This document shows positions 169-29,946 of a stretch of DNA of 31,338 nucleotides, one piece after another. The position numbers and the translations under genes are program-made. The stretch covers positions 1 through 31,338 of the forward strand of contig JAJDZO010000028.1 in assembly GCA_022824605.1 (NCBI GenBank). Reading direction: 5' to 3'. A model generated the notes under the pieces. That model did not search any database. It worked only from the letters and a program-made list of their open reading frames with translations, and was not told the origin of the DNA. Every line of letters begins with the position of its first letter. Position 1 is the first letter of the stretch. The stretch is from Acidimicrobiia bacterium. Lineage in GTDB: Bacteria; Actinomycetota; Acidimicrobiia; Acidimicrobiales; Aldehydirespiratoraceae.

Positions 169-1275
169 GTGATTGTGGAGCCCCAGCGGGAGTGGTTCGA
201 GAAGGACTACTACAAGACCCTCGGCGTGGCTGAGGACGCCTCGGCCTCTGACATCGCCAAGGCCTATCGCAAGCTGGCCAAGAAGCTGCACCCCGACGCC
301 AACGGCGGCGACTCCGCGGTCGAGGAGCGCTTCAAGGAGGTGGCATCGGCCTACGACGTGCTCGGCGACGCCTCCAAACGCAAGTCCTACGACGAGGTGC
401 GCCGCCTCGGTCCAATGGCCGGGGCGTTCGGACCCGGCCGGGCGGGCCCCGGCGGCGGGTTCAACGTGAACTTCGATCAGATGGGCGATCTCGGAGACCT
501 CTTCGGCAACATGTTCGGCCGTCGCCGCAACACGGCCGCTCAGCGGGGCGCCGACATCGAGACCGAGGTGAAGCTCGACTTCGCCGATGCCGTGTCGGGA
601 ACCACCATCGCGGTGCCCGTCACCGGTGAGGCCCGATGCCGCAAGTGCGAGGGTCTCGGAGCCGAGCCCCCGGCCAAGCCTCGCTCGTGCGGCGCCTGTG
701 CGGGCACCGGAGTGAACGACGAGAATCAGGGGCTGTTCTCCTTCAGCCGGCCCTGCGGCGCCTGCGCCGGACGCGGCAATGTCATCGACGATCCCTGCAG
801 AGCCTGCCGAGGCCGGGGAGTGGAGAACCGGCGCCGTGAGGTGAAGGCCCGCATACCCGCCGGGGTCAAAGACGGACAGAGGATCAAGCTGTCGGGCCGG
901 GGCGCCGCCGGTCACAGCATCGGCGCCAAGCCTGGTGACCTGTACGTGAGGGTCCACGTCAAGCCGCACCGGACGTTCGGACGAGACGGCAAGAACCTCA
1001 CGCTGAGCGTGCCGGTGACATTCTCGGAGGCGGCGCTGGGTGCCCAGATCCCGGTGCCGACCCTGGACGGATCGACGGTCACCATCCGCATCCCGCCCGG
1101 CACCGAGACGGGACGGCGCCTTCGCATCCCGGCGAGCCCCGCCACCGGCGGCGCCGACCTGATCGTCGAAGTCGAAGTGGTGGTGCCCCAGAACCTGTCC
1201 GATGAGCAACGGGCAGCGCTGGAGGCCTTGGCGGCCGCCGGAGGCGAGGACCCGCGGGCTCACCTGAAGACATGA
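169..1275 (+). CDS. dnaJ: Chaperone DnaJ
   Basis: J domain with HPD (KLHPDAN), G/F region, four CxxCxGxG zinc-finger repeats; GGAG before GTG. Confidence 0.97.
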   Translation: MIVEPQREWFEKDYYKTLGVAEDASASDIAKAYRKLAKKLHPDANGGDSAVEERFKEVASAYDVLGDASKRKSYDEVRRLGPMAGAFGPGRAGPGGGFNVNFDQMGDLGDLFGNMFGRRRNTAAQRGADIETEVKLDFADAVSGTTIAVPVTGEARCRKCEGLGAEPPAKPRSCGACAGTGVNDENQGLFSFSRPCGACAGRGNVIDDPCRACRGRGVENRRREVKARIPAGVKDGQRIKLSGRGAAGHSIGAKPGDLYVRVHVKPHRTFGRDGKNLTLSVPVTFSEAALGAQIPVPTLDGSTVTIRIPPGTETGRRLRIPASPATGGADLIVEVEVVVPQNLSDEQRAALEALAAAGGEDPRAHLKT

Positions 1276-1304
1276 ACGCAACCTTTCAACGACATGGAGA
1301 ATGA
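1272..1304 (+). CDS. Putative bridging micro-ORF MNATFQRHGE (10 aa)
   Basis: ATG overlaps dnaJ TGA (ATGA 1272-1275); TGA overlaps hspR ATG (ATGA 1301-1304); translation unproven. Confidence 0.4.
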   Translation: MNATFQRHGE

Positions 1305-1735
1305 CGATGACCGATGACCGCTTCCACCGAGCCGTGTATGTGATATCGGTGGCCGCCGAGTTGGCCGGGGTCCATCCCCAGACGCTTCGCATCTACGAGC
1401 GCAAGGGCCTGCTCGCGCCGGCTCGCACCGCCGGGGGCAGCCGCCGCTACAGCGACGCCGACCTGGCGCAACTGGAGCGCATCGCCGAGCTCACCGACGA
1501 GGGTCTCAACCTTGCTGGAGTGCAGCGAGTCCTGGAACTGGAGCGAACCGTCGCCGAGTTGCGGGCCCAACTCGACGATGCCCGCCGGGCCCAGGAGCGC
1601 CGAATAGCCGAGTTGACCGCTCGGGGCTTCAACCCCGACGGCCTCGTTCCGGCTGTGCCCACCACTCGGGCGGTGACCATCTTCCGAGCGACCCGAGCAC
1701 CGGCCTCGGTGGTTGAACCGATCACGAGGCGATGA
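1301..1735 (+). CDS. hspR: Heat-shock repressor HspR (MerR family)
   Basis: YVISVAAELAGVHPQTLRIYERKGLL..RTAGGSRRYS..GLNLAGV; located after dnaJ. Confidence 0.95.
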   Translation: MTMTDDRFHRAVYVISVAAELAGVHPQTLRIYERKGLLAPARTAGGSRRYSDADLAQLERIAELTDEGLNLAGVQRVLELERTVAELRAQLDDARRAQERRIAELTARGFNPDGLVPAVPTTRAVTIFRATRAPASVVEPITRR

Positions 1736-28460: not shown

Positions 28461-28532
28461 CGCGGCAGGCCGCGACCCGGCAAACACCGGGTGAAGTTCT
28501 TGTGAAACCGTTGAGCCGGTACCGTCTCCTCC

Positions 28533-29825
28533 GTGCTCGACCTGCGCCAGCTGAGGGCTGAACCCGACGCCGTCAAGGCCGGTGTCGCCCGCAGGGGCGA
28601 GCCCACCGCGCCCCTCGATGAGGTCATAGCCCACGACGAACGTCGCCGCCGCGTGGTGAGCGAGGCCGACGAGCTGCGGGCGGAGGTCAAGCGCATCTCG
28701 GCATCGGTGGGCGCACTGTTTCGTGACGGCCGAGCCGCTGAGGCTGAGGAGTTGCGGGCTCGCAGCCGCGAGCTGGGCGACCGCATCGACGAATTGGCTG
28801 CCGAGGCCGACCAACTGTCGGAGTGGATTCGCCGGATCCTGCTGTTCGTGCCCAACCTCCCGGCGGAGGACTGTCCAGACGGATCCGGCCCCGACGACAA
28901 CGTCGTGGTGCGAACCGTCGGCTACGACCCGGACGCGTACAGCGAGCATCAGCGGGTGCCGCACTGGGATGTCGGCACCGAACTCGGCATCCTCGACGTG
29001 GATCGGGCGGTGCGCATGTCGGGCGCCATGTTCGCCATGTACCGCGGGCTGGGTGCTCGGCTGGTGCGGGCCCTCATCGACTACGGGCTCGACCGCAACC
29101 GCGACGCCTACGAGGAGATCCGTCCGCCGACGCTGGTGCGCACCGAGACGATGACCAGCACCGGCCATCTGCCCAAGTTCTCCGACGATGCCTACCACCT
29201 TGAGCGCGACGGGCTGTGGGCCATCCCCACCGCCGAGGTTCCGCTCACGTCGCTGCTGTCGGGTGAGATCGTCGACGAGGAGGCCCTGCCGATCCGGTTG
29301 ATGGGCCACACGTCGTGTTTCCGGCGTGAGGCGGGATCGGCTGGTCGAGACACCCGCGGGCTGTTGCGGCTGCACGAGTTCGACAAGGTGGAGCTGTACG
29401 GGTTCTGCACGCCCGAGCAGGCTCACGACCTGCACGCCGAGATCCTCGAACGGGCCGAGGGAGCCATAGCCGATCTGGGATTGGCCCACCGGGTGCTTGA
29501 TCTGTGCGCCGCCGATCTGGGCGGTGCCTCGGCGCGCACCTTCGACATCGAGGTGTATGCGCCGGGAGCGGCGCGCTGGCTGGAGGTGTCGAGCGTGTCG
29601 TGGTGCCGCGACTACCAGACTCGCCGTGCCGACGTGCGCTATCGCCCGGCTGAGGGCGGACGCACGAAGATGATGCACAGCCTCAACGGTTCGGGGCTGG
29701 CCGTGCCCCGGGTGTGGGCCGCGCTGGTGGAGACCTACCGACAGCCCGACGGCTCGATCGCGGTCCCTGAGGCGCTGCAGCCCTACATGGGCGGTCTCAC
29801 GTCCATCGAACCCCGCGTGGCATGA
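28533..29825 (+). CDS. serS: Seryl-tRNA synthetase
   Basis: MLD N-terminus with coiled coil, PTAEVPL, CFRREAGSAGRDTRGL.R.HEF.KVE, E.SS.S.C.DYQ.RR, LNGSGLAVPR. Confidence 0.98.
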   Translation: MLDLRQLRAEPDAVKAGVARRGEPTAPLDEVIAHDERRRRVVSEADELRAEVKRISASVGALFRDGRAAEAEELRARSRELGDRIDELAAEADQLSEWIRRILLFVPNLPAEDCPDGSGPDDNVVVRTVGYDPDAYSEHQRVPHWDVGTELGILDVDRAVRMSGAMFAMYRGLGARLVRALIDYGLDRNRDAYEEIRPPTLVRTETMTSTGHLPKFSDDAYHLERDGLWAIPTAEVPLTSLLSGEIVDEEALPIRLMGHTSCFRREAGSAGRDTRGLLRLHEFDKVELYGFCTPEQAHDLHAEILERAEGAIADLGLAHRVLDLCAADLGGASARTFDIEVYAPGAARWLEVSSVSWCRDYQTRRADVRYRPAEGGRTKMMHSLNGSGLAVPRVWAALVETYRQPDGSIAVPEALQPYMGGLTSIEPRVA

Positions 29826-29946
29826 CGATCGCTACCGCCGACGACCGGGCCTGCAGGGTCCGTCTCGCGTCCATCGAATCCCGCTGACATGATGACCGCT
29901 ACCAACGGCCGGCGCTGCATGGGCACCGTCGCACCCCGCTGACATG
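29794..29946 (+). repeat. Degenerate triplication of the serS stop/next-start junction encoding two chained micro-ORFs
   Basis: 29794-29825 resembles 29862-29892; CCCCGCTGACATG recurs at 29934; ORFs 29822-29887 and 29889-29942. Confidence 0.8.

Follow-up and report, generated by a model that had tools for sequence, protein, structure and literature searches.

Contig JAJDZO010000028.1 of the Acidimicrobiia bacterium assembly GCA_022824605.1 (contig C161 here; "the window" is the whole analyzed stretch of 31,338 nt) carries ten micro-open reading frames (micro-ORFs) of 6 to 33 amino acids (aa) at seven junctions between neighboring operon genes. Each of the ten is coupled at both ends, to the stop codon before it and to the start codon after it, either by overlapping (ATGA, GTGA, or TGATG) or across no more than 4 nt. 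An earlier note written from the letters of the sequence had pointed out these frames, and all of them are present, with both couplings, at the positions collected in Table 1. The micro-ORFs are interpreted as leftovers of local expansions of operon junctions that were sieved by selection on the reading frame, and they are proposed to form a relay along which ribosomes are passed from one gene to the next; the probability of this reading is put at about 0.7.

The genes flanking the seven relay junctions are co-directional and lie 25 to 118 nt apart. Among the 20 co-directional junctions of the window, 12 have gaps of 10 to 200 nt, and 7 of these 12 are relays, compared to about 0.5 expected at the rate found when the register is broken. 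The earlier note had counted ten micro-ORFs out of ten in register and assigned this a chance of ∼2e-5, a figure that is invalid because the cases were picked by eye and the three units in front of cox4 derive from one repeat. The excess over chance to which it pointed is nevertheless upheld by unbiased register tests of the whole 3.2-Mb genome. For the relay scan, chains of ORFs were traced from the upstream stop codon to the predicted downstream start in co-directional gaps of 10 to 200 nt. Of 1058 such junctions, 146 hold a complete relay that ends precisely at the predicted start, compared to 45 each when 1 or 2 nt are removed from mid-spacer (binomial P = 3e-19 versus equal thirds). An enrichment over shuffled spacers, which the earlier note had made a consequence of its claim, is also seen, with 146 relays observed versus 91 after dinucleotide shuffling. 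The shuffle was dropped as a null for the register in favor of the 1- and 2-nt deletions, because spacer length and the flanking NTGA contexts survive shuffling. A looser definition of the relay, accepting any final start within 60 nt and setting no length limit, gave 247 relays versus 173 by chance and was tightened.

A second test makes no use of ORFs. Stop contexts were taken as 23-mers, and a copy was scored where at least 17 positions were identical at a distance of 9 to 300 nt downstream. Stop contexts are duplicated in 115 of 2760 cases, compared to 14 of 1278 23-mers from gene interiors, with identity at up to 23 of 23 positions. For the 56 duplicated contexts of the ATGA or GTGA type, the distance L to the copy is 2, 0, and 1 mod 3 in 41, 8, and 7 cases, respectively (P = 1.2e-9). 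Inspection of the 15 exceptions identified several of class 0 as in-frame N-terminal repeats and several of class 1 as relays by another route. The period classes given by Tandem Repeats Finder alone are weaker, with a split of 62/31/49 when every tandem repeat in a co-directional spacer is counted and of 10/9/26 when only those across the junction are. Genome-wide, the units measure 11 to 180 nt, and the 3.2 Mb contain at least 100 junctions with such units; the unit lengths in the window are 17 to 18, 41, 47, 55 to 67, and 98 nt. In a blastn-short search against the genome, 156 of 158 relay spacers have no match on other contigs, and the spacers therefore do not belong to a dispersed family.

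The closest relatives of the window organism form the genus Candidatus Aldehydirespirator (Acidimicrobiales), represented mostly by metagenome-assembled genomes from sponges. Control samples of 400 kb per genome place the phenomenon in this genus: a complete genome of the same genus contains 23 intact relays versus 10 and 11 after the two deletions, and 15 of its 334 stop contexts are duplicated. A relative from another family with 70% GC shows 12 relays versus 6 and 2, with 4 of 377 stop contexts duplicated and none of the NTGA type, and a relative from another family with 54% GC shows 5 relays versus 6 and 6, with 0 of 337 stop contexts duplicated. The overall density of tandem repeats is similar among the high-GC genomes; what stands out in the genus is duplication at junctions, not repeats generally. 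The comparison of junctions in relatives, which the earlier note had suggested as a check, shows minisatellite-like variation across 39 genomes of the genus, mostly in register. Over six loci, the genus shows 82 distinct expanded junctions, of which 53 form relays (60 with a gap of 6 nt permitted), compared to 13 to 20 after deletion. The unit copy number differs widely between species of the genus, a comparison made on assembled contigs, which cannot show variants within a population. Metatranscriptome contigs covering the cox4 region came from relatives, not from the window organism.

Judged from their make-up, the micro-ORFs are mostly the products of local tandem duplications in which the start of the downstream gene is fused to the C-terminal end of the upstream one. 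The earlier note had placed most of them between duplicated junction sequences, and this holds for purA-purB, COX1'-COX3', ctaE-cox4, and serS-methyltransferase; clpS-DUF2017 shows a short duplication and dnaJ-hspR a weak one, and the micro-ORFs of dnaJ-hspR and ctaD-ctaE are not counted as products of duplication. At purA-purB, a motif at the stop codon is duplicated with the copies 41 nt apart, and the orthologous micro-ORF repeats the PurA tail FLYW-EAA at L273 and L274, the latter with two units of 35 nt. At COX1'-COX3', a 16-nt junction motif is duplicated with the copies 47 nt apart; the last 8 residues of the micro-ORF equal the C terminus of COX1', so that the tail VTGRRAS is present twice, and relatives show units of 17 and 35 nt. 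The first of the two micro-ORFs behind serS ends in LASIESR, an echo of LTSIEPR in SerS. Relatives show the basal state TGA-G-ATG at this junction, separate in-register duplications at L253 and L264, and three expansions with a GGAGG site of their own in place of a bridging ORF. At clpS-DUF2017, relatives with the basal state overlap directly by TGATG, and other relatives have relays of 3 aa (MQD) or 32 aa.

In the window, ctaE and cox4 are separated by four tandem copies of the cox4 start region, with unit lengths of 17, 17, 18, and 17 nt. Across the genus, the junction ranges from a gap of 4 to 5 nt (0 units) up to about 10 units (179 nt). Unit anchors are spaced by 17 nt in 19 cases, by 18 nt in 16 cases, and otherwise by 24 or 36 nt, none of them 1 mod 3, and chains of up to 5 exact links are kept (L036).

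Two junctions differ from this scheme. At dnaJ-hspR, the end of the micro-ORF (HGE-stop) matches the C terminus of DnaJ in those relatives whose dnaJ reaches the ATGA overlap (L165, L175, and L176), and the relay is present in 15 of 30 loci of the genus, the window included. This micro-ORF looks like a former C-terminal tail of DnaJ that was severed by an indel rather than created by duplication. A difference of 1 nt in length interconverts the DnaJ tail and the separate relay ORF (L165 and L175 versus L168 and the window at positions 1240 to 1304). At locus L162, the start region of hspR contains a 7-nt tandem repeat (ATGACCG) of 4 units, whose alternate units each end a 5-codon ORF at the following ATG.

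At ctaD-ctaE, the direct ATGA overlap is the basal state in 19 loci, and 17 loci have inserts. All 17 inserts are relays, with spacers of 34 to 202 nt in nine lengths, all of them 1 mod 3. The insert of the window has ∼100 nt with a conserved GC-rich core, and a blastn-short comparison with the genome gave only weak matches of 14 to 28 nt with E values of at least 0.05. The insert may be a copy of a dispersed element or have another origin, and it is not classed as a duplication. The inserts of L022 to L045 have ∼109 nt and contain a core with a GC hairpin that is near-invariant over ∼15 species, surrounded by variable flanks; the core might be a structured RNA element within the relay ORF. 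The largest expansion seen belongs to G012 (L014/L055), which has a 367-nt array of ATGAGC/GTGAGC units at ctaD-ctaE, not scored as a complete relay by the criteria used, and a 204-nt array before cox4.

Two of the downstream starts on which the relays depend had been assigned by the earlier note (GTG 17888 for COX3' and ATG 22593 for ctaE), and they are confirmed by the N termini of orthologues. The codon-bias caller used here placed them differently, at positions 17939 and 22545. In 21 of 30 relatives, COX3' starts with M/V-RTTALP where it overlaps COX1' by ATGA, a position equivalent to GTG 17888 here; in 19 of 41 related loci, CtaE starts with MSAEP where it overlaps ctaD by ATGA, equivalent to ATG 22593.

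The genus also contains an element of another kind, a GC-rich palindrome of ∼65 to 110 nt that is dispersed in at least 90 copies in genome G000, in all intergenic contexts and both orientations. It occurs in two length variants with a common core, has no Rfam match, and is found twice in the window. One of the 158 relay spacers belongs to it. In relatives, the element lies within the purA-purB, COX1'-COX3', and clpS-DUF2017 junctions, mostly with no bridging ORF, and its insertions account in this manner for most of the purA-purB expansions of the genus. Expansions caused by this element and some of those bearing GGAGG have no bridging ORF; expansion of a junction thus does not always result in a relay.

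A model can be proposed for the origin of the relays. The expansions are mostly tandem duplications of 11 to 180 nt that span the overlap of stop and start (ATGA, GTGA, or TGATG). Following such an event, the upstream gene would end in the first copy and the downstream gene would start in the second, with a spacer between them made of the first bases of the downstream gene followed by the last bases of the upstream gene. If the overlap measures 4 nt or 1 nt and the unit length is 2 mod 3, the first copy's start codon would open a short frame that closes on the authentic start and reads both gene pieces in their original frames. A ribosome ending the upstream gene could then reinitiate at the overlapping start, translate the micro-ORF, and reinitiate at the next start, whereby translational coupling would outlive the insertion. 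A unit of 0 mod 3 would lead to an N-terminal extension of the downstream protein, and a unit of 1 mod 3 would send out-of-frame ribosomes across the true start, the class that is depleted. Tandem duplication across the overlap predicts chimeric micro-ORFs, as are seen with the tails of COX1', SerS, and PurA. Reinitiation at overlaps of −4 and −1 and the delivery of ribosomes by short ORFs are established (reviewed in PMC12548453), and the geometry of termination-reinitiation, with the stop and the next start overlapping or a few nucleotides apart, is found at the window junctions. By analogy, serial termination-reinitiation is the likely mechanism. The earlier note had proposed that junction duplications are retained only if ribosomes can still be handed on; its register component is borne out by the biases described above (41/8/7, 146 versus 45, and 53 of 82 versus 13 to 20), while actual reinitiation of ribosomes from link to link, and its role as the trait under selection, are inferred.

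Several points weigh against this reading. Shine-Dalgarno-like 4-mers are found at 45% of the relay-fed genes and 43% of the directly overlapping genes, with a background of 14%. The expectation that relay-fed genes lack a Shine-Dalgarno motif thus failed; the equal rates mean that these genes may not depend on hand-on, and the test does not separate hand-on from independent initiation. The register bias is explained equally well by merely halting stray ribosomes before the true start. Only ∼4 of 20 expansions at purA-purB are convincing relays, and at clpS-DUF2017 about half of the expansions are relays and the rest plain spacers. True violations of the register rule amount to a handful, and a few exact and presumably young duplications are out of register, such as that of 37 nt on C321. 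The gene models (2760 genes) come from our own simple codon-bias caller, so their starts are approximate, and the nominal P value of the six-locus comparison (7e-8) makes the case look stronger than it is, the genomes of one genus being non-independent.

The first alternative takes up some of these points and considers the duplicated starts accidental: ribosomes would need only to stop before or at the true start, and the downstream gene would use its own Shine-Dalgarno motif. The motif frequency at relay ends, equal to that of directly overlapping genes and three times the background, fits this explanation, as do the existence of non-relay expansions and an extra cox4 unit at L005/L045 that has ACG in place of ATG with no apparent cost. 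Against it, the stops coincide with the next start codon (ATGA, TGATG, or no more than 4 nt between them) rather than lying at any point ahead of it, the initial start codon has in most cases been kept instead of being lost by mutation, and chains of up to 5 exact links persist. This alternative is considered unlikely.

Another possibility is that junction minisatellites act as heritable, fast-mutating rheostats, in which each added link cuts reinitiation by a fixed factor, so that gaining or losing units would retune the subunit ratios of respiratory or other complexes and leave promoters and coding sequences unchanged; this appears rather improbable. Its adaptive form, in which the unit copy number is selected to set the ratio of neighboring subunits (more links would then mean less cox4 relative to ctaE), follows the earlier note, which had considered such tuning possible, and is slightly less probable still. 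The range of 0 to about 10 units at ctaE-cox4 among species is in line with such tuning, several junctions join subunits of one complex, and the variable-number tandem repeats formed by mycobacterial interspersed repetitive units (MIRUs) have been proposed to cause differential translation within operons (PMC2734929). Against it, unrelated pairs (dnaJ-hspR, purA-purB, and serS-methyltransferase) behave in the same way, a share of ∼14% of all junctions suggests that mutation acts generally and is followed by filtering, and no link of copy number to any trait or clade was found.

It is very improbable that long open frames at 67% GC, together with frequent NTGA gene ends and starts, yield the bridging ORFs by chance with no selection: shuffled spacers and the looser definition do still give many relays (91 versus 146 and 173 versus 247), but the number falls to 45 when the register is broken by 1 to 2 nt, the classes of L mod 3 are split 41/8/7, the copy of a context agrees with it in as many as 23 of 23 positions, and the excess is absent from the 54% GC relative and small, with low counts, in the 70% GC relative from another family. 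Functional micropeptides are hardly credible as an explanation: a 38-aa ctaD-ctaE frame has a core conserved over ∼15 species, but most micro-ORFs are chimeras of neighboring gene ends whose number and sequence differ between close species, and the encoded peptide is probably not the selected product because the variable sites of the ctaD-ctaE micro-ORF, the single one examined, are distributed 10/13/15 over the codon positions, with no third-position excess (the ctaD tail, intended as a control, is of low complexity and uninformative).

The closest known system is that of the MIRUs of the Mycobacterium tuberculosis complex, a published precedent that the earlier note did not name. These are intra-operon repeats with ORFs whose ends overlap the flanking stop and start by 4 nt (Supply et al. 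1997, via PMC12548453, PMC3184786, and PMC2734929). The same sources describe a duplicated tetranucleotide at the flanks, a variable copy number, and an insertion read as barely affecting downstream expression, as well as a single dispersed homologous family with units of 40 to 100 bp at about 41 loci that is thought to be mobile (PMC12548453, PMC3184786, and PMC2734929). The relays share the position between co-directional operon genes of an actinobacterium, the short ORFs that point the same way as their neighbor genes and overlap them at stop and start, the duplicated tetranucleotide, and the reading that an insertion can persist with little effect downstream. Copy number varies between strains in MIRUs and, in the relays, between species of the genus. 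In contrast to MIRUs, they form no dispersed homologous family, with 156 of 158 spacers copying their own junction, and the units of 11 to 180 nt exceed the range of 40 to 100 bp on both sides; the dispersed palindromic element that the genus does possess sits mostly in junctions with no relay. The relays therefore share the logic of MIRUs and fall outside the MIRU family.

Two further systems are related. The first is termination-reinitiation coupling at ATGA/TGATG overlaps, together with short upstream ORFs of M. tuberculosis that are tied to the next gene by an NUGA overlap (PMC12548453; bioRxiv 10.1101/2022.06.01.494293; PMC11260477). It shows the same stop/start geometry and the same proposed role of a short ORF serving only ribosome delivery; the upstream ORFs belong to 5' leaders and have one coupled end, unlike the relays, which are intergenic, coupled at both ends, and chainable. 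In engineered two-cistron, or bicistronic design (BCD), cassettes, a short leader cistron stops on the start codon of the target gene (cited in PMC12548453, reference 78). There, too, a short cistron hands ribosomes on, but BCD is synthetic and has one link only, served by a strong ribosome-binding site of its own, whereas the links described here are natural by-products of duplication. No description of the relays for Acidimicrobiia or Ca. Aldehydirespirator was found in the open-access literature.

If the proposed reading is true, the lineage represents a natural experiment on translational coupling, in which more than 100 expansions per genome in dozens of species show which spacer lengths survive. 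This would be comparative evidence for selection on the hand-on from stop to start, or at least on termination at the true start, and a MIRU-like arrangement could then arise by local duplication with no mobile element. For annotation, gene callers can be expected to misplace starts at relay junctions, as happened at COX3' and ctaE here, and to ignore or misannotate the micro-ORFs. With its 0 to about 10 units, the ctaE-cox4 array offers a natural series for the efficiency of reinitiation per step.

The window belongs to an assembly of 3.2 Mb in 410 contigs with ∼67% GC. Of words sampled from positions 22300 to 23700, 88% are present in one sponge metagenome, and a Logan contig from a separate assembly of this probable source metagenome matches positions 22300 to 23574 with zero differences; the repeat arrays are therefore not an artefact of a single assembler. 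The gene names in the earlier note agree with the Pfam assignments, which identify, in addition to the genes in Table 1, clpB, ctaA, ctaB, ctaC, and ctaG; COX1' and COX3' represent a second COX1/COX3 pair.

Table 1. Genes, micro-ORFs, and other features of the window, in order of position
Feature	Positions	Strand	Sequence or length	Junction and coupling
dnaJ	169-1275	+		
Micro-ORF	1272-1304	+	MNATFQRHGE, 10 aa	dnaJ-hspR; ATGA overlap at both ends
hspR	1301-1735	+		
purA	4341-5627	+		
Micro-ORF	5630-5668	+	VGRHVLDDQKAP, 12 aa	purA-purB; 2 nt past the purA stop, 4 nt ahead of the purB GTG
purB	5673-7103	+		
Tandem repeats	11147-11444			P450-ilvD spacer
Three tRNA genes	12952-13259	-		
DUF2017 gene	13360-13845	-		
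Micro-ORF	13845-13874	-	9 aa	clpS-DUF2017; TGATG overlap at both ends
clpS	13874-14140	-		
Palindromic element	14200-14234			
COX1'	16297-17844	+		
Micro-ORF	17841-17891	+	MIASACPAAVTGRRAS, 16 aa	COX1'-COX3'; ATGA at upstream end, GTGA at downstream end
COX3'	17888-18472	+		
ctaD	20507-22498	+		
Micro-ORF	22495-22596	+	33 aa	ctaD-ctaE; ATGA overlap at both ends
ctaE	22593-23231	+		
Micro-ORF	23236-23256	+	6 aa	ctaE-cox4; chained
Micro-ORF	23253-23273	+	6 aa	ctaE-cox4; chained
Micro-ORF	23270-23308	+	12 aa	ctaE-cox4; chained
cox4	23305-23658	+		
Palindromic element	23728-23770			
serS	28533-29825	+		
Micro-ORF	29822-29887	+	21 aa	serS-methyltransferase; chained; followed by TGA-C-ATG
Micro-ORF	29889-29942	+	17 aa	serS-methyltransferase; chained; followed by TGA-C-ATG
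Methyltransferase gene	29944-30603	+		

The only Rfam matches in the window are three tRNA genes (RF00005, 63 to 65 bits) located between DUF2017 and the P450 gene; none of the junctions matches a known RNA family. Tandem repeats with periods of 17 and 130 nt occupy the 365 nt that separate the P450 gene from ilvD, two minus-strand genes, and the chain search gave no relay in this spacer. CtaD has 663 aa, and a C-terminal stretch (residues 575 to 632) matches the Pfam family Cyt_c_ox_IV (PF12270). This stretch is preceded by a Thr/Pro/Lys-rich linker that is variable among species, and a separate COX4_pro gene lies downstream of ctaE.

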